NCBI GenBank assembly: GCA_964247025.1
Contig: CAXTSM010000001.1
Coordinates: forward strand, 92,050 to 156,049
Origin: an uncultured Chthoniobacterales bacterium
Lineage (GTDB): Bacteria; Verrucomicrobiota; Verrucomicrobiia; Chthoniobacterales; JAATET01
Reading direction: 5' to 3'
DNA: 64,000 nucleotides
Both the position numbers and the translations under genes were made by a program. The notes below the pieces were generated by a model. The model had not been told where the DNA came from, did no database searches, and saw nothing but the letters and a program-made list of their open reading frames with translations. Of the stretch, positions 8,948-24,175 are shown piece after piece. Each line of letters begins with the position of its first letter. The first letter of the stretch is position 1.

Positions 8948-8980
8948 GCTGATTATGGCGGGTGCCGAGCCGATCATGGC

Positions 8981-9680
8981 GCCGCGGTCCGAAAGTCCTT
9001 GTAGCCGCCCCGCTCCGTCGGGGCGCTGGGGGGGCGCGTGATCTCACGCCACACGGCGACGGAGCGCCGTGGCTACAAGGAGACATACCCCGAGGCGCAC
9101 CTCGCCTTCGGGCAAACCGCCGCGGTCCGAAGGTCCTTGTCGCCGCCCCGCTCCGTCGGGGCGCTGGGGGGCGCGTGATCTCGCGCCACACGGCGACGGA
9201 GCGCCGTGGCGACAAGGAAACATGCGGGGCGCGCTTCGTCTTCGGGCAAACCGCCGCGGTCCGAAGGCCCTTGTAGCCGCCCCGCTCCGTCGGGGCGCCG
9301 GGGGGCGCGTGATCTCACGCCACACGGCGACGGAGCGCCGTGGCTACAAAGAAATGTGCCGGGGCGCACCTCGCCTTCGGGCAAACCGCCGCAGTCCGAG
9401 GGTCCTTGTAGCCGCCCCGCTCCGTCGGGGCGCCGGGGGGACGCGTGATCTCGCGCCACACGGCGACGGGGCGCCGTGGCGACAAGGAAACATGCGGGGC
9501 GCGCTTCGTCTTCAGGCAAACCGCCGCGGTCCGAAGGCCCTTGTCGCCGCCCCGCTCCGTCGGGGCGCCGGGGGGCGCGTGATCTCGCGCCACACGGCGA
9601 CGGAGCGCCGTGGCGACAAAGTCGGAGCGCCGTGGCGACAAAGTCGAGGCGCCGCGGCGACAAGGAAACATGGCCGGGAC
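8981..9680. repeat. Tandem array of 5 copies of a ~134-138-bp nested-palindromic REP/MITE-like element
   Basis: Units start at 8981, 9119, 9253, 9388 and 9523. Each contains the closing inverted repeat CCTTGT[A/C]GCC...GGC[T/G]ACAAGG around three small hairpins (GCCCCG-CTCCGT-CGGGGC; GCGTGA-TC-TC[A/G]CGC; CACGGCG-ACGGAG-CGCCGTG). The last unit has its 3' arm triplicated with a ~22-bp period. Confidence 0.85.
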
Positions 9681-16780: not shown

Positions 16781-16854
16781 CGGAGGCACGGAGGCACGGA
16801 GGCACGAGGCACGAGGCACGAGGCACGGAGGCACGGAGGCACGGAGGCACGGAG
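16781..16854. repeat. Short tandem repeat (CGGAGGCA)3-(CGAGGCA)3-(CGGAGGCA)3
   Basis: The 8-mer/7-mer/8-mer blocks are read directly, in the ~610-bp non-coding region upstream of pgm. Confidence 0.9.
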
Positions 16855-17162: not shown

Positions 17163-18806
17163 ATGAGCCTGAGCCCTCTCGCCGGCAAGCCCGCCCCCGC
17201 CTCGATCCTCACGAACATTCCGCGCCTCGTCGCCAGCTACTACTCCGAGTCGCCCGACCCCGCGGTGGCGGCCGAGCGCGTCGCCTTCGGCACCTCGGGC
17301 CACCGCGGATCGTCCTTCAAGCGCACGTTCAACGAGGCCCACATCCTCGCGATCTGCCAGGCGATCTGCGAATATCGAGCCGGCATCGGCACGGACGGAC
17401 CGCTTTTCCTCGGCATGGACACCCACCCGCTCTCGGAGCCCGCGTGGATCTCGGCGGTGGAGGTCTTCGCCGCCAACGGCGTCACCCTCATGCTCGACCA
17501 CGACGGCGGCTACACGCCCACGCCCGCCGTTTCGCACGCCATCATTACCTACAACCGAAGCCGCGCCACCGGCCTCGCGGACGGCGTCGTCATCACGCCC
17601 TCGCACAATCCGCCCACCGACGGCGGCATCAAATACAACCCGACGAACGGCGGCCCGGCCGATACCGACATCACCGGCTGGATGGAAAAACGCGCGAACG
17701 AACTGCTCGCGGGCGGCTTGCGCGAGGTGCGGCGGACCACCCTCGCAAAGGCCCGCGCCGCCGCCACCACCCGCGAGTTCGATTACGTCTCCCACTACGT
17801 GAACGACCTCGGCTCCGTCATCGATTTCGCCGCGATCAAGGCCAGCGGCCTGCGCATCGGCGTCGACCCCATCGGCAACGCCTCGCTCGCCTACTGGCCG
17901 CCCATCGCGGACCGCTACGGCCTCGACCTCACGATCGTGAACCAGGAAATCGACTTCACGTTCCGCTTCATGAGCGTGGACTGGGACGGCAAGATCCGCA
18001 TGGACTGCTCGTCGCCCTACGCGATGGCTGGGCTGATCGGATTGAAGGATCAATTCGACATCGCCTTCGCCAACGACACCGACGCCGACCGCCACGGCAT
18101 CGTCACGCCGAACGCCGGGCTGATGAACCCCAATCATTACCTCGCCGTCGCCATCTCCTATCTTTTTGCAAATCGTCCCGGCTGGCCGGCCGCGGCGCGC
18201 ATCGGCAAGACGCTCGTGAGCAGCAGCATGATCGACCGCGTGGCCGCGAAGCTCGGCCGTCCGCTCGTCGAGGTGCCGGTCGGGTTCAAGTGGTTCGTCG
18301 ACGGCCTGTTCGCCGGCACGCTCGGCTTCGGCGGCGAGGAGAGCGCCGGCGCGTCGTTCCTGCGCCGCAACGGCGACGTCTGGACCACGGACAAGGATGG
18401 TCCGATCCTCGGCCTGCTCGCCGCCGAAATCACCGCGACGACCGGGCGCGACCCCGGCGAGCACTACGTCGCGCTCACCGAGGAATTCGGCGCCCCGGTC
18501 TACGAGCGCATCGACGCCCCGGCGAACGCCGCGCAGAAGGCGGTCTTGAAAAATCTCTCCCCCGCCCAGGTCCCCGCCACCGAATTGGCCGGCGAGCCGA
18601 TCACCCGCATGCTCACCACCGCCCCTGGAAACGGCGCGGCCCTCGGTGGCCTGAAAATCGAAACCGCCTCCGGATGGGCCGCCGCCCGCCCGAGCGGCAC
18701 GGAGGAGGTCTATAAGATCTACGCCGAAAGCTTCCGGGACGCGGACCACCTGGGCCGCATCCAGGCGGAGACCCAGGAAATCCTGGCCCAAGCCTTCGCG
18801 TTATAG
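17163..18806 (+). CDS. pgm: Phosphoglucomutase, alpha-D-glucose phosphate-specific
   Basis: Start at [12 protein letters not shown] (internal Met of ORF 16869..18806). Active-site '[11 protein letters not shown]', 'GTSGHRG' and 'GEESAGASF' motifs. 547 aa. Confidence 0.92.
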
Positions 18807-18829
18807 CCACCGCGCTCTGGCCGCGCCCT

Positions 18830-18926
18830 CTTTGTAGCCACGGCGCTCCGTCGCCGTGTCCCCGCGCTCCGCTCGGAAGACGGCCATCATCCCGCGCCCC
18901 GCCCCCGCGGAGCGGGGCGGCGACAA
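18830..18926. repeat. REP/MITE-like palindromic element (same family as the 8981-9680 array, inverted orientation)
   Basis: 'ctttgtagccacggcgctccgtcgccgtgt...ggagcggggcggcgacaa' shares the arms of the tandem-array unit in reverse complement. It lies just after the pgm stop. Confidence 0.7.
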
Positions 18927-18991
18927 CTTGCGGCCGCGCATCATCCAAGATCGCGCTTGCCTCGCCGGGAGACTTCCCTATTCCTGCGCGG

Positions 18992-19381
18992 ATGAAATCG
19001 ATCCTGAGAGTTATACCGGTCGTTCTGGGAATTTCCGCTGGCGTGGCCGTCGCGGCGGACAAGCGGGACGCGCAGCTGCAGGAAATCTCCGCGATCAAGG
19101 AGGAACTGAAACCGCTGCGCGAGCGGGCCTACGTCGAGCCGGAAGTCATTGCCGCGCGCCGGAAACTGGACGCCGCCTACCGCGAGTATTGGGAGTCGGT
19201 CCGCGGCGCCATGGAGCGGCTCGACCCGGCGAAGAAAAAGCTCATCAAAAAAGAAATCGCCCTGCGCAAGGAAACCGGCGCCGTCGCCGGCGGCAGCCGC
19301 GCCGAGGACTACGAAAAAAAGGCGGCGCAGGCAAAAGCGGCCGAGACGCCTTCGTCGAAAGCGAAAAAACCCGGCGACTAG
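18992..19381 (+). CDS. Hypothetical secreted helical Lys/Glu-rich protein (copy 1)
   Basis: Signal peptide MKSILRVIPVVLGISAGVAVAA followed by coiled-coil-like sequence. Its duplicate at 20627..21016 differs by 2 aa. Confidence 0.55.
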   Translation: MKSILRVIPVVLGISAGVAVAADKRDAQLQEISAIKEELKPLRERAYVEPEVIAARRKLDAAYREYWESVRGAMERLDPAKKKLIKKEIALRKETGAVAGGSRAEDYEKKAAQAKAAETPSSKAKKPGD

Positions 19382-19421
19382 GACCATATCTGTCCGATGC
19401 CGGTTCATAAACTCCGTTGAA

Positions 19422-19531
19422 ATGAGCCTGGAATATGAAGTGCACACCGATCCGAAGTCATCGGACGCGCGCAACGGGGAATCCCGCTCTTCACGCCGGA
19501 GCGCAACGCGTTTGCCGAAGGCGAGTGCGCC
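19422..19531 (+). pseudogene. cas3 5'-end remnant (diverged, frameshifted)
   Basis: 'MSLEYEVHTDPKSSDAR...' aligns with the cas3 start 'MSPEFYAHTDPESSDVR' at offset 1635. An indel breaks the frame, and similarity ends after 'ggcgagtgcgcc'. Confidence 0.6.
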
Positions 19532-19612
19532 TGGGCCCAAAGCGATCCAAGCGGACGGACCCTTAGCCGAATCGGATTGCGAAAACTTGCATGTCAAACG
19601 ATATTCGAACGT

Positions 19613-19828
19613 ATGACAACGTCACTTTTATCACCCAAATACCAAGTTGTTATCCCGAAGGAAATTCGGAAGCGGCTCACCCTGAGACCCGGACAACGCC
19701 TGCAAGTCCTGGAAAAAGACGGCTACATTGAAATCCGCCCCATCCTCCGGCCCGACCAACTCATCGGGATCCTTTCCGACTGCAAGCATATCGCATTCGA
19801 GCGGGAACCAGATCGCGAACTCCCATGA
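19613..19828 (+). CDS. vapB: AbrB/MazE/SpoVT-family antitoxin (VapB-like)
   Basis: 'KYQVVIPKEIRKRLTLRPGQRLQV' is a swapped-hairpin DNA-binding motif. 71 aa. ATGA overlap with the downstream PIN gene. Confidence 0.8.
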   Translation: MTTSLLSPKYQVVIPKEIRKRLTLRPGQRLQVLEKDGYIEIRPILRPDQLIGILSDCKHIAFEREPDRELP

Positions 19829-20214
19829 GGAGGCCCCCCTCGCTCGATAGTTCCGCCTGGATCGAGATCTTTCACGGCGGGCCGAACGCCGAACGATTTC
19901 TCGACGCGCTGGGAGATCCCGCTGCCGTCATTGTTTCACCCGTCGCCATCTACGAAGTGTGGAAATACACCATTCTTCACGCCGACGAATCGCGCGCGCA
20001 GGTCATCTTGGCATTCATGCGCCAAGGCACCCTCGTCCCCGTCGATGCCGATATCGCCATCCTCGCAGCCGCTCTAAGCATCAAGAAGAAAACCCCCATG
20101 GCAGACAGCCTCATCTACGCCACCGCCGTCAGCCGGCAGGCCACCCTCTGGACGCAGGACCAGCATTTCGAAGGACTCGACCACGTCCGCTACTTCCCCA
20201 AAATCAACCCCTGA
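19825..20214 (+). CDS. vapC: PIN-domain ribonuclease toxin (VapC-like)
   Basis: 129 aa with the acidic residues of a PIN fold ('LDSSAWIE', 'IYEV', 'MADSLIYATA', 'TQDQHF'). Visibly lower GC than the flanks. Confidence 0.8.
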   Translation: MRRPPSLDSSAWIEIFHGGPNAERFLDALGDPAAVIVSPVAIYEVWKYTILHADESRAQVILAFMRQGTLVPVDADIAILAAALSIKKKTPMADSLIYATAVSRQATLWTQDQHFEGLDHVRYFPKINP

Positions 20215-20276
20215 CCCTCTCTCCATGGCCTACGGCGGTCAAACGCCATGCCTCAGGCGACTTTGCCCGCTTCACC

Positions 20277-20441
20277 GGCCCTGAAATGAAAGTCGGGCGC
20301 GAGTCCGACTGTTTCGCCGCCCGCTGGAGCGACACGGAGGAGGTCTCTAAAATCTACGCCGAAAGCTTCCGGGACGCGGACCACCTGGGCCGCGTCCAGG
20401 CGGAGACCCAGGAAATCCTGGCCCAAGCCTTCGCGTTATAG
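20277..20441 (+). pseudogene. pgm 3'-end fragment (duplicated, no 5' part)
   Basis: '...[36 protein letters not shown]' matches the pgm C-terminus. Upstream similarity decays by about 20277. Confidence 0.75.
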
Positions 20442-20464
20442 CCACCGCGCTCTGGCCGCGCCCT

Positions 20465-20561
20465 CTTTGTAGCCACGGCGCTCCGTCGCCGTGTCCCCGC
20501 GCTCCGCTCGGAAGACGGCCATCATCCCGCGCCCCGCCCCCGCGGAGCGGGGCGGCGACAA
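20465..20561. repeat. REP/MITE-like palindromic element (duplicate of 18830..18926)
   Basis: Identical sequence at offset 1635. Confidence 0.7.
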
Positions 20562-20626
20562 CTTGCGGCCGCGCATCATCCAAGATCGCGCTTGCCTCGC
20601 CGGGAGACTTCCCTATTCCTGCGCGG

Positions 20627-21016
20627 ATGAAATCGATCCTGAGAGTTATACCGGTCGTTCTGGGAATTTCCGCTGGCGTGGCCGTCGCGGCGGACAAGCG
20701 GGACGCGCAGCTGCAGGAAATCTCCGCGATCAAGGAGGAACTGAAACCGCTGCGCGAGCGGGCCTACGTCGAGCCGGAAGTCATTGCCGCGCGCCGGAAA
20801 CTGGACGCCGCCTACCGCGAGTATTGGGAGTCGGTCCGCGGCGCCATGGAGCGGCTCGACCCGGCGAAGAAAAAGCTCATCAAAAAAGAAATCGCCCTGC
20901 GCAAGGAAACCGGCGCCGTCGCCGGCGGCAGCCGCGCCGAGGACTACGAAAAAAAGGCGGCCCAGGCAAAAACGGCCGAGACGCCTTCGTCGCAAGCGAA
21001 AAAACCCGGCGACTAG
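20627..21016 (+). CDS. Hypothetical secreted helical Lys/Glu-rich protein (copy 2)
   Basis: 129 aa, 2 substitutions relative to 18992..19381. Confidence 0.55.
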   Translation: MKSILRVIPVVLGISAGVAVAADKRDAQLQEISAIKEELKPLRERAYVEPEVIAARRKLDAAYREYWESVRGAMERLDPAKKKLIKKEIALRKETGAVAGGSRAEDYEKKAAQAKTAETPSSQAKKPGD

Positions 21017-21056
21017 GACCGCGTTTGTCCCATGCCAGATCATAGACTCGTTTGAA

Positions 21057-23462
21057 ATGAGCCCGGAGTTTTACGCGCACACCGACCCGGAATCATCGGA
21101 CGTGCGCGACTGGGAACCGCTCTTCACGCCGGAGTGTCCCGCGCTTGCCGGAGGCGAGTGCGCCAAATGCGAAAGCCTAGACCGCTTCCACGGCCACCTC
21201 AACAAAGTCGCCTGGTGGACCGCGAAGTTCGCCGCGGAAATGTTCCCGCCCGGCCCCGACCGCGAAGCCGCTCGCGAGTGGGGCCGCCTTGCCGGCCTGT
21301 GGCACGACCTCGGGAAGTTTCATTCCCGCTTTCAGCAAAAGTTGAACGGTGAGCGCCTCCAAATCGAACATGCCGGAGCGGGCGCGGCTTTGGCGCGACG
21401 CTGTCAGATCCCGGGCTGGGAATTAATTGCCTTTGCCATTGCAGGACATCACTGCGGCCTGGCGAACATGTTGAATGCCGAGGCCATTGGTGATCGGCTG
21501 ACACCTCTCGACGAGAGACTGACGAGAGGGGCGGGGACTCTCCGCGAATGTGAGGCGACGGCCGGTTTTCAAATCGGTGAGGTCGCCAATGTTCAGTTTA
21601 CCGCTGAGCGGAATGCCATCTTGGCATCTGTTTTCGCGCATTGCCCGGACCGCGGCCATTTCATCCGCCGGCTCTTCTCGGCGCTGGTCGATGCGGATGG
21701 CCTTGCGACCGAGGCATTCTGTTCGCCGTCAGAACGCAAAACCCGATTTCGCCAGGACTGGATTTACGATTCCGTGGAGGCGCTCCTCGATCGACTTGAC
21801 GGTCATTTGGACAGCTTCTCGCGGTGCGGCGCGCAATCTGCGGTGAATGAGGAGCGGGCTCGCATCCTGCAGTGGAGCCGATTGGCGGCCGCGGAGTCAC
21901 CTGGATTCTTCCAGCTCAATGTTCCAACCGGGGGCGGAAAAACGCTATCCGCGATGGCGTTTGCATTGCGCCACATAAAAACACATGCAGGCAAAGGCCT
22001 TCGTCGTGTCGTGATCGCCGTGCCCTACACGAGTATCATCGAACAGAATGCCGGCATCTATCGGGACATCTTGGGGGCGCACAATGTCATCGAGCACCAC
22101 TCGAACCTTGACGATTTTGCCGAAGGCGAAGAAGGCGGTGACGAGTTGGCGGTGCGTCGCCGTCTCGCGTGCGAAAATTGGGATGCGCCGATCGTCGTGA
22201 CGACGAACGTGCAGTTGTTCGAATCGCTTTTCGCGAACAAGCGACGTCGCGCCCGCAAGTTGCACAACTTGGCGGGCAGCGTGATCATCCTCGACGAGGC
22301 ACAGTGCGTTCCGGCCGAGTATCTGCACCTCATCCTTTCCGCGACGCGAGGTCTTGTTGAGAAACATGGCTGCACCGTCGTCATCTCGACGGCGACCCAA
22401 CCAGCCTGGAAGCACCGAGCCAAGCTCCCGTTCGGTATCCCCGCGGAACAAATCCGGCCAATTGTTCCTCCCGGTGTCGAACTGGCCAAGGTGGACGCCT
22501 TCGACCGCGTAACCGTTGAATGGCCGCGATCTTTGGTGCCGACCACGCATGAGGAACTGGCCTCATTGCTCCTGGATGAAAATTGCGTGATGGCCATCGT
22601 CCATCGGAAAAAGGACGCGCGAAACCTCGCTCGACGCCTTCGGGAGGAGCGACCGGACGAGTCGGTCTTTCACCTTTCGACCAACATGTGTCCGGTCCAT
22701 CGACGGAAGGTGCTCGAGGAAATCCGCTTTGCGCTTTCGGATTTTCGCAAGAGCGGCACGCCGTGCCGCGTGGTCAGCACCCAGCTTGTGGAAGCGGGGG
22801 TCGACCTTGATTTTCCGGTGATTTATCGGGCTCTGGCAGGACTTGACTCCATCGCGCAGGCAGCGGGCCGGTGTAATCGGGAAGGCCGCTTAGTTGGCAA
22901 AAAAGGAAGGGTCGTAGTTTTCATTGCGGAGACCGATCCGCCAGATGGGCATCTCAAGCACTGCGCGGAAATCACGCAAAAGATGCTCGCGGAATACGAG
23001 GGAAAGCTAGACTTGCGGAATCCTTCAATCTTCGAGGGATTTTTTTTCCGGCTTTATCGAGATCGCAACCTCGACGCGAAAAATCTCGTCCGCCACGCAA
23101 TGGATCTGAATTTCGAAACGCTGGGACGCGAGTTCCGACTTATCGAAGAGGGCGATCAGATGCCCGTCGTCATTCTCTTCGATAAGGAAGCTCGAAAGCG
23201 TCTCGCCGATATTGAGCGGATCGTGCAAAACGCGGATGAACCCGTTGCCGCCCGTTTTGCCCTGCGTGCCCTCCAACCCTACACGGTGCTCGTGCGCCCG
23301 GCTGACCAAAGAAAGCTCAGCAACGCATCACGTCCTCTTTCCGCAGGAAATGCCGTCTCCGTTCTAGATCCCGATTTCTACTCCGGCTCCTACGACTCCG
23401 TTTTTGGACTCTCCACCGATGATGAACCACGAATTTATCCTGACCAACTTATTGCAGAGTAA
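21057..23462 (+). CDS. cas3: CRISPR-associated helicase/nuclease Cas3 (HD domain plus DEAD/DEAH helicase)
   Basis: Start at MSPEFYAHTD (internal Met of ORF 20784..23462). HD motifs 'HGHL', 'LWHDLGKF' and 'AGHHCGL'. Helicase motifs 'VPTGGGKT', 'IILDEAQ', 'STATQP' and 'QAAGRCNREG'. 801 aa. Lower GC than the surrounding genome. Confidence 0.9.
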   Translation: MSPEFYAHTDPESSDVRDWEPLFTPECPALAGGECAKCESLDRFHGHLNKVAWWTAKFAAEMFPPGPDREAAREWGRLAGLWHDLGKFHSRFQQKLNGERLQIEHAGAGAALARRCQIPGWELIAFAIAGHHCGLANMLNAEAIGDRLTPLDERLTRGAGTLRECEATAGFQIGEVANVQFTAERNAILASVFAHCPDRGHFIRRLFSALVDADGLATEAFCSPSERKTRFRQDWIYDSVEALLDRLDGHLDSFSRCGAQSAVNEERARILQWSRLAAAESPGFFQLNVPTGGGKTLSAMAFALRHIKTHAGKGLRRVVIAVPYTSIIEQNAGIYRDILGAHNVIEHHSNLDDFAEGEEGGDELAVRRRLACENWDAPIVVTTNVQLFESLFANKRRRARKLHNLAGSVIILDEAQCVPAEYLHLILSATRGLVEKHGCTVVISTATQPAWKHRAKLPFGIPAEQIRPIVPPGVELAKVDAFDRVTVEWPRSLVPTTHEELASLLLDENCVMAIVHRKKDARNLARRLREERPDESVFHLSTNMCPVHRRKVLEEIRFALSDFRKSGTPCRVVSTQLVEAGVDLDFPVIYRALAGLDSIAQAAGRCNREGRLVGKKGRVVVFIAETDPPDGHLKHCAEITQKMLAEYEGKLDLRNPSIFEGFFFRLYRDRNLDAKNLVRHAMDLNFETLGREFRLIEEGDQMPVVILFDKEARKRLADIERIVQNADEPVAARFALRALQPYTVLVRPADQRKLSNASRPLSAGNAVSVLDPDFYSGSYDSVFGLSTDDEPRIYPDQLIAE

Positions 23463-23492
23463 AAACCGCTCCCTCAGATGGGAGCGGTTTCT
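23463..23492 (+). terminator. Stem-loop immediately after the cas3 stop; repeat-core-like hairpin
   Basis: 'AAACCGCTCCC-TCAGAT-GGGAGCGGTTT' is a perfect 11-bp stem followed by 'ctatt'. The stem core CGCTCCCTCA..GGGAGCG mimics the CRISPR repeat stem. Confidence 0.5.
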
Positions 23493-23514
23493 ATTCGATC
23501 CGCCAAACCTACAG

Positions 23515-23547
23515 GTTTCAATCCGCGCTCCCGCGTCGGGAGCGAAC
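23515..23547 (-). repeat. Solitary inverted, degenerate CRISPR repeat copy ('anti-repeat') 14 bp upstream of repeat 1
   Basis: GTTTCAATCCGCGCTCCCG-CGTC-GGGAGCGAAC compared with the reverse complement of the repeat, GTTTCAATCCGCGCTCCCG-TGA-GGGAGCGAC. The first 19 nt are identical and the stem is retained with a different loop. Confidence 0.8.
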
Positions 23548-23561
23548 TTCTACTCATATCG

Positions 23562-24175
23562 GTCGCTCCCTCACGGGAGCGCGGATTGAAACGATTTCCT
23601 CCCACTCGAAAGAGTGGCAACCTACGTCGCTCCCTCACGGGAGCGCGGATTGAAACGTCGCGCTGAGCTTAGCTAATTTCGCCGTTGCGGGTCGCTCCCT
23701 CACGGGAGCGCGGATTGAAACATGAAGCCCGAGGGCATTGTAATCTTTCATGTCGGTCGCTCCCTCACGGGAGCGCGGATTGAAACTGGCGCGGATGGCA
23801 GACAAGGTCTTGGAGCCTGGGTCGCTCCCTCACGGGAGCGCGGATTGAAACGCGACCTGCCGCAGCTCGGTGAACTCATCGGGCGGTCGCTCCCTCACGG
23901 GAGCGCGGATTGAAACCATGAAGCGATCAAAAGATAAGATAGAAGCTTTTGTCGCTCCCTCACGGGAGCGCGGATTGAAACGTGAACGGGAAGGGCTCGT
24001 CCCCTGCCCGGCCGCGTCGCTCCCTCACGGGAGCGCGGATTGAAACACCGATCGGGAAACGGAGCGTGCATCCCGAGAGGTCGCTCCTTCACGGGAGCGC
24101 GGATTGAAATACGGCGCGGCCGATGGGCGTCGCGGCGGGCACTTGTCGCTCCCTCATGGGAGCGCGGATCTCGGG
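23562..24175 (+). CRISPR. CRISPR array with 10 repeats and 9 spacers; type I-C-like repeat
   Basis: 31-bp repeat GTCGCTCCCTCACGGGAGCGCGGATTGAAAC at 23562, 23626, 23691, 23756, 23821, 23886, 23951, 24016, 24080 (2 mismatches) and 24145 (3' end degenerate). Spacers are 33-34 bp and all different. The degenerate repeats sit at the cas3-distal end. Confidence 0.95.

Follow-up and report, generated by a model that had tools for sequence, protein, structure and literature searches.

How did a segment of a bacterial chromosome come to stand twice in direct orientation, with a toxin-antitoxin gene pair set between its two copies, and why has the arrangement persisted? The question arises from a stretch of 64,000 nucleotides (the window) of contig CAXTSM010000001.1 from an uncultured Chthoniobacterales bacterium, where the 3' end of pgm (phosphoglucomutase), a spacer holding a hairpin that resembles repetitive extragenic palindromic (REP) elements, a gene for a protein of 129 amino acids (orf129) and the 5' end of cas3 are found on both sides of a vapBC pair. 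A sequence-only reading of this DNA had taken the pattern for the signature of a Campbell-type integration. The explanation that we favour, and hold somewhat likelier to be right than wrong, is an old homology-assisted additive insertion after which the repeats evolved in concert and their collapse was probably counter-selected through VapC addiction.

The limits of the direct repeats were set by gapped alignment and a per-site mismatch map at 18652-19531 (copy 1, + strand) and 20287-21164 (copy 2, + strand), giving a unit of ~880 bp. Self-blastn of the window paired 18680-19531 with 20315-21164 (95.4% identity over 852 nt, E=0), and a repeat search and offset scan of the window returned 1635 bp as the sole offset, as previously claimed for the duplicated segment; copy 1 has 2 extra bp at 19482-83, the frameshift of the cas3 remnant, and beyond this insertion the offset becomes 1633. 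Copy 1 begins with the last 155 nt of an intact pgm (17172..18806, +; Pfam PGM_PMM domains I-IV), and continues through the REP-like intergenic DNA and the first orf129 (18992..19381, +) to a decayed cas3' remnant (19422..19531, +). Copy 2 begins with a pgm' remnant (20287..20441, +), and continues through the same intergenic DNA and the second orf129 (20627..21016, +; likewise 129 amino acids) to the 5' end of an intact cas3 (21057..23462, +). The DNA unique to the junction (19532..20286, +) holds vapB and vapC and no other gene. The repeat is beyond chance by far, and the observation is confirmed: alignment reproduced the order of repeat, unique vapBC DNA and repeat, and open reading frames (ORFs) with Pfam matches reproduced the gene content (pgm, two 129-residue ORFs, vapB, vapC and cas3). 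Smaller corrections concern the left limits, formerly put at 18642 and 20277, which were ~10 nt too far out, and the junction DNA, which is basically the lower-GC vapB-vapC pair as described and measures 755 bp, not 745.

Identity along the repeat was stepped and not uniform, as read from the per-site mismatch map. The outer left edge (18652-18697, 46 nt) carries 15 substitutions and the inner left zone (18698-18759, 62 nt) carries 3; the core (18760-19326, equivalent to 20395-20961, +; 567 nt) is 100% identical with zero differences; the inner right zone (19327-19385, 59 nt) again carries 3, and the outer right edge (19386-19531, 146 nt) carries 28 and the indel. Divergence is 0% in the core, ~5% in the flanking zones and 19-38% at the outer edges, and 49 substitutions plus the 2-bp indel are packed within 313 nt versus none across the core. 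If ~50 differences were scattered uniformly over 880 nt, a gap of 567 nt would have a probability of ~1e-21, as calculated from the mismatch map. The centres had been described by eye as almost identical with a few substitutions; the near-identity stands, and the few substitutions are in fact 567 bp without any difference. Within the core lie the final 47 nt of pgm, which are dead sequence in copy 2, all 185 bp of the non-coding spacer and almost the entire orf129; the two copies of this gene differ by a single synonymous change and by two replacement changes in the C-terminal tail. Because the core holds non-coding and pseudogene DNA, its identity is not due to purifying selection. The tract is far longer than the flanking divergence would give, as gene conversion leaves it, and is interpreted as the most recent gene-conversion tract.

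The left part of the repeat carries a record of the direction of this conversion. The last 52 codons of pgm were polarised against three outgroups in which pgm lies upstream of an orf129 homologue: L005, a Chthoniobacterales metagenome-assembled genome, and L013 and L016, both from Joint Genome Institute (JGI) metagenomes. The remnant in copy 2 comprises the last ~51 codons of pgm and its 5' edge is decayed; the two copies differ at 23 sites here, and at 18 of them it is the remnant that has the derived state. These changes include RPSGTE to RWSDTE, a Y-to-S and a W-to-C change, at residues invariant in all outgroups, and the remnant-only sites (18652-18759) fall at codon positions 1 or 2 in 9 of 11 cases, with no third-position bias. 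The remaining 5 of 23 are derived in the functional pgm, all at 18657-18679. Sites that changed in the lineage of the window are distributed sharply: left of 18680 none is shared by the copies and 5 are present in copy 1 only, and right of 18686 all 9 are shared, with none confined to copy 1 (Fisher p = 5e-4), and all 5 window-specific pgm substitutions in 18760-18800 are common to both copies. Lineage-specific substitutions are shared inside the tract and not outside it, a second mark of gene conversion, here with small numbers of sites. The pgm' remnant bears the recent alleles of the resident pgm and was therefore overwritten from copy 1 over most of its length; this suggests that gene conversion ran from copy 1 to copy 2, over an outer edge that is old or foreign. 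The outermost ~30 nt of the remnant hold none of the five substitutions specific to the resident pgm, which fits DNA from another lineage, and this deep outer edge (0/5 shared) mildly favours a fragment from another lineage over an origin in situ.

At the opposite end, the cas3' remnant corresponds to the first ~110 nt of cas3 (aligned to 21057-21164) with a +2 frameshift at 19482-83; the conserved YAH is gone from it, as are the W of WEPLF and one Cys. Polarisation of this edge was confined to two short conserved blocks alignable to the nearest relatives at 70% identity, and has little bearing on whether the DNA was foreign or resident. Differences polarised in this manner were derived in the copy-1 remnant in 9 of 11 cases, 8 of those 9 being at codon positions 1 or 2, and none was derived in the functional cas3. 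Since the changes sit in the remnants, hit invariant residues and include a frameshift, both truncated ends have decayed in place, and their decay is of the pseudogene type, judging by the substitutions. The sequence-only reading was right that the right edge of copy 1 (the frameshifted cas3 remnant) and the left edge of copy 2 (the pgm remnant) are diverged and truncated, and that the per-base profile is not flat. No support was obtained for reading a Campbell signature into the pattern: the centre is a 567-bp core with zero differences and the edges differ mostly through pseudogene decay. Edge-specific divergence that is explained by conversion and pseudogene decay would follow any event that creates the duplication; the contrast of edge and centre reports later gene conversion and age, not the mechanism of integration, and a test for a flat profile cannot tell the models apart.

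The junction DNA encodes an AbrB/MazE-type antitoxin, VapB (19613..19828, +; Pfam MazE_antitoxin, 4.3e-09), and a PIN-domain toxin, VapC (19825..20214, +; Pfam PIN, 1.6e-14), the latter apparently intact. The vapB stop overlaps the vapC start (ATGA at 19825-19828), and D8, E44, D94 and D112 of VapC occupy invariant columns of the family alignment. The pair has the makings of VapBC, i.e., a PIN toxin with its acidic residues and a small, overlapping upstream antitoxin with a DNA-binding fold, and it is apparently intact and functional. The GC content of the junction DNA is 0.58 versus 0.68 for the window, and GC at third codon positions (GC3) is 0.90 in pgm, 0.60 in vapB, 0.76 in vapC and 0.66 in cas3; because their GC3 is lower than that of pgm, vapBC and cas3 look acquired, and the earlier statement that the insert is compositionally foreign agrees with both measures. 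The nearest VapC homologue is 67% identical, and no DNA match for the insert was found among 72,556 plasmids. Neither a rep gene nor an integrase was detected in or next to the insert by ORF and Pfam analysis, no transposase was detected in it, and its ends are without terminal inverted repeats, target duplications or attC-like symmetry, showing short chance matches alone. The insert is not of the insertion sequence (IS) or transposon kind, in line with the earlier view that no transposition-type event took place. Homology of the junction DNA to the cas3 or pgm flanks did not exceed the level of shuffles; a 4-nt microhomology, GGCC, lies at the vapBC/pgm' junction. The idea that vapBC was inserted into a longer cas3' remnant was tried on a weak resemblance between 20249-20280 and nt 92-139 of cas3, with a gap of 17 nt, and was given up because under several scoring schemes the resemblance was no better than with shuffles or random segments (p = 0.05-0.3). 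As an observation apart, the frame of cas3' following the +2 insertion stays open to a TGA at 19614-19616 which overlaps the vapB ATG (19613) as ATGA; this overlap may couple vapB translation to the old cas3 start, and by a rough estimate would arise by accident in ~7% of cases.

We compared the locus with its relatives to see what the site looks like elsewhere. The genes pgm and orf129 stay neighbours in L005, L013 and L016. Only L005 is readable past orf129, and it has a single copy, no vapBC and no cas3; the contigs of L013 and L016 are too short to show the DNA beyond orf129. A single-copy site without vapBC, as the earlier reading would have it for relatives, is seen in L005, and L013 and L016 bear on pgm-orf129 adjacency alone. 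This empty-site comparison is with distant relatives (pgm 80-86% identical in amino acids; 86% for the syntenic pgm of L005) and with an L005 site that is without cas3. Synteny with L005 spans an aldehyde dehydrogenase gene, pgm and orf129, and ends immediately after orf129; other orf129 homologues have different downstream neighbours, and the site after orf129 is consequently a variable one. Exact-protein look-ups with VapC, the aldehyde dehydrogenase, the orf129 product and Cas3 revealed no other contig carrying these sequences, and a genome-contig scan with the orf129 sequence alone gave no match; scans with the orf129 family alignment gave 4 distant genome-contig loci and 8 distant metagenome loci, none closer than ~70% amino acid identity. 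Divergence confined to the remnants is 0.19 at the right edge and 0.24 at the outer left edge, compared with a raw divergence at four-fold sites of 0.39 (both lineages together) between the pgm of the window and that of L005. By this comparison the event is old relative to the distance to the nearest sequenced syntenic relative, whatever its origin.

On the favoured explanation, one homology-assisted additive recombination would have occurred at the variable site downstream of orf129, either when a circularised fragment crossed over once (Campbell type), or, just as well, when a linear fragment paired by homology at one of its ends and was joined illegitimately by the second. Both routes would leave a truncated cas3' and a truncated pgm' at the junction together with a horizontally acquired vapBC. 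The two dead gene ends would then decay neutrally, and the inner 567-690 bp would be homogenised repeatedly by non-crossover gene conversion, at least partly from copy 1 to copy 2. The decay of the dead ends and the homogenisation of the inner repeat are the firm part of this sequence of steps, being visible in the alignments described above.

Among the alternatives, the one that survives best is that no foreign homologous fragment was involved: an illegitimate sister-chromatid exchange would have duplicated the segment from pgm' to cas3', and vapBC would have been captured at the dead junction or inserted into it later. It accommodates the finding that all polarisable cas3-side differences are decay of the remnant with none in the functional copy, the GGCC microhomology at the vapBC/pgm' junction agrees with it, and the junction is the sole place where an insertion would be harmless. 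It requires, though, that two events coincide at one point, or else leaves the capture of 755 bp unexplained. The absence of all five resident-pgm changes from the outer pgm' (0/5) would also place the split early on the branch from the L005 ancestor, as the probability of 0/5 is ~0.03 if the duplication happened halfway along the branch; and no leftover cas3 sequence was found right of vapBC when compared with shuffles. We consider an origin in situ unlikely.

A plain and fairly recent Campbell integration of a circle from a related strain, in which the edges represent donor-versus-recipient divergence, accounts less well for the data. Unique DNA is indeed bracketed by direct repeats of a homologous segment, the insert is foreign in composition, neither an IS nor terminal inverted repeats nor a target-site duplication accompany it, and the outermost pgm' remnant is without the five lineage-specific changes of the resident pgm. 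But a single crossover predicts that donor and recipient diverge throughout the repeat, yet 567 bp including non-coding DNA are identical, a discrepancy rescued only by adding gene conversion. The edge differences are mostly non-synonymous, at invariant residues and accompanied by a frameshift, as expected of decay in place and not of a functional foreign allele, and the pgm' remnant holds 9/9 of the window-specific alleles right of 18686. Homologous integration of a circle by single crossover is possible and is not diagnosed by the repeat: no circular donor or donor genome, replicon function, integrase or plasmid match was identified in the searches described above. In its simple form we regard this origin as improbable. 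Lastly, an assembly artefact or population mixture, i.e., two strain haplotypes, or the locus and a free 1.6-kb circle, stitched in tandem, is suggested by the source being a single metagenome-type contig of 299,729 bp with no second assembly and by a 567-bp exact repeat that is hard for short reads, but is very improbable, since the cas3'-vapBC and vapBC-pgm' junctions are unique and so must exist in reads, the alternative topology is a 1,635-bp circle without a replication gene, and the decayed remnants on both sides of vapBC are as an integrated structure predicts, where haplotype stitching would yield two functional-looking ends.

It remains to explain why the old insertion, if such it was, has not been lost. 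Tandem duplications in bacteria are generally unstable, and these direct repeats, whose 567-bp identical cores stand 1.07 kb apart, offer RecA a substrate for deletion. With a crossover between them, only vapBC and the spare orf129 would be lost and an intact pgm-orf129-cas3 would be restored. The duplication has outlasted ~20% neutral decay although conversion shows that the repeats interact; because a repeat of the unstable type has outlived this decay while recombining, deletants appear to be counter-selected. They would be so through the post-segregational toxicity of VapC, and conversion outcomes alone would survive. The long survival is probably best explained by such VapC-based counter-selection of deletion. 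A stricter version is an addiction lock on repeats that, by the identity of their core, recombine often, where VapC would kill every crossover product and let non-crossover conversions pass, and where the cas3/CRISPR (clustered regularly interspaced short palindromic repeats) remnant downstream would be guarded incidentally; we put this forward tentatively, and consider it rather unlikely.

Several points weigh against the old insertion and its retention by addiction. Three origins, a Campbell circle, a linear fragment and an in-situ duplication, fit the architecture equally well. Polarisation of the left edge rests on 14 sites, and that of its deep outer part on 34 nt. The toxicity of VapC, the lability of VapB and the addiction effect are predictions which we infer from the analysis, and the structure could just as well be kept by a benefit of vapBC itself or of two copies of orf129. 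Searches of public contig collections gave no genome near enough for the event to be dated or polarised. The structure is as the assembly gives it, and the exact 100% identity of the core may be inflated by consensus building or bubble-popping in a short-read assembler; the contrast of core and edge would survive even if the core had a small number of real differences that the assembler removed.

The small gene carried whole within the repeat has features of its own. Since orf129 belongs to a family of 15 homologues with 21 invariant columns, it is a real gene; it has no Pfam match, and its signal-peptide-like N-terminus, noted by eye only, suggests that this small conserved protein may be secreted. 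The family is confined to contigs of Chthoniobacterales/Terrimicrobiaceae type, and has an invariant core (LKPL...A..E..V...R..LD.AY..YW..VR.AM.RL.P) and a lysine/alanine-rich tail. Directly upstream of the orf129 homologue in L013 (441-1152) and in another contig, L003 (539-1290), there is a nucleotidyltransferase-like ORF (weak NTP_transf_5/DUF6036 matches) with an 82-aa ORF; in L013 these two lie between pgm and orf129, and the pair may be another small cassette at the orf129 locus.

The spacer between pgm and orf129 contains the REP-like hairpin in both copies of the repeat, either as a 30-nt pattern (18834..18863, -, and 20469-20498) or as a 31-nt one (18829-18859 and 20464-20494). In the window the 30-nt pattern was met 4 times where 0 were expected, the other two occurrences being at 9047 and 9318. 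A cluster at 8980-9620 consists of ~4.7 tandem copies of a 135-bp unit made up of two GC-rich hairpins, and one 31-nt hairpin of this cluster recurs inverted in the spacer of both repeat copies; the hairpins of the cluster and of the spacers look like a family of REP or bacterial interspersed mosaic element (BIME) type. Upstream of pgm, an octamer microsatellite, CGGAGGCA x 9.6, lies at 16781-16854 in a region not conserved with L005. No Rfam family was found in 16-26 kb of the window, and a scan for sigma-70-type promoters and terminators across the repeat gave nothing above shuffle expectation.

Downstream of the repeat, cas3 encodes 801 amino acids with Pfam HD and helicase matches, and its GC3 of 0.66 compares with ~0.9 in core genes. 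The nearest Cas3 relatives are 66-71% identical, and each of them belongs to a complete type I-C operon at a locus unrelated to this one. A CRISPR array follows cas3 directly (23562..24175, +); it has 9 spacers and 10 repeats, of which the last two are degenerate, and none of the spacers has a self-target within the window. By tblastn with the Cas proteins of L017, cas5, cas8c, cas7, cas4, cas1 and cas2 were not found in the 64-kb window; cas3 and the array are present and the effector and adaptation genes of a full type I-C locus are not. We take 21057-24175 to be a degenerate type I-C locus on the strength of this gene content; its surroundings as a whole form an island that has been reworked and in part degraded. 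Between cas3 and the array there are a hairpin that resembles the stem of the repeat (23466-23494) and a single variant repeat in inverted orientation (~23516-23548). Toxin-antitoxin or Abi-like pairs are found ahead of cas4 in related type I cas operons, those of L017 and L018 being I-C; the pairs follow cas7 in L017 (11975-13225) and L018 (12097-12814), and cas3 in L003 (9267-9978), and the cassette types in L017/L018 are Phd with PIN and a nucleotidyltransferase, and AbiEii-like with a small ORF. Small addiction-type modules beside cas operons seem to be recurrent in the clade.

The locus can be set beside four known situations. It resembles a Campbell or suicide-plasmid insertion-duplication in having unique DNA between direct repeats, one truncated copy of each flanking gene, and a structure revertible by recombination of the repeats; it differs in that no circular donor, replicon or integrase is evident, and in its identical core and decayed edges. 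Homology-facilitated illegitimate recombination of an additive kind, leaving displaced gene ends, has been proposed for orphan immunity genes and for arrays of Rhs and type VI secretion system (T6SS) genes (PMC5361080). As in that model, foreign DNA has been added beside a conserved anchor gene, pushing resident sequence downstream and orphaning gene ends, and no mobile-element machinery takes part; here, however, a whole small gene is within the duplicated part, the cargo is a toxin-antitoxin pair, and the only microhomology is the 4-nt GGCC. Long-lasting concerted evolution is known for prokaryotic paralogues such as tuf and rrn (PMC6053082), with which the repeats share a long identity tract, lineage-specific substitutions held in common and divergence rising towards the repeat ends, although here the tract is a tandem one of a small gene and non-coding or pseudogene DNA, and not of dispersed, selected essential genes. 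Toxin-antitoxin cassettes kill cells upon excision from chromosomal integrons (PMC13108822), and chromosomal type II toxin-antitoxin modules are treated as anti-deletion or addiction elements in a review (PMC7167474). Similar to the integron cassettes, an intact vapBC lies in an excisable segment whose loss is predicted to free a stable toxin; unlike them, excision would be RecA-mediated between host repeats and not by an integrase at attC, and the effect would be of a predicted kind.

The locus represents no new mechanism or kind of element and is an instance of known processes; should the favoured explanation be wrong, what remains is the common scar of a rearrangement, in a verrucomicrobial lineage that has been little sampled. 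If it is true, additive integration of a defence-type cassette, concerted evolution and toxin-antitoxin stabilisation would meet at one natural site. Whether chromosomal toxin-antitoxin modules act as natural anti-deletion devices is still argued, and a repeat-flanked vapBC would be a simple and direct test case. The implication, which is mildly interesting, is that in this organism a toxin-antitoxin pair may lock a tandem duplication in place.

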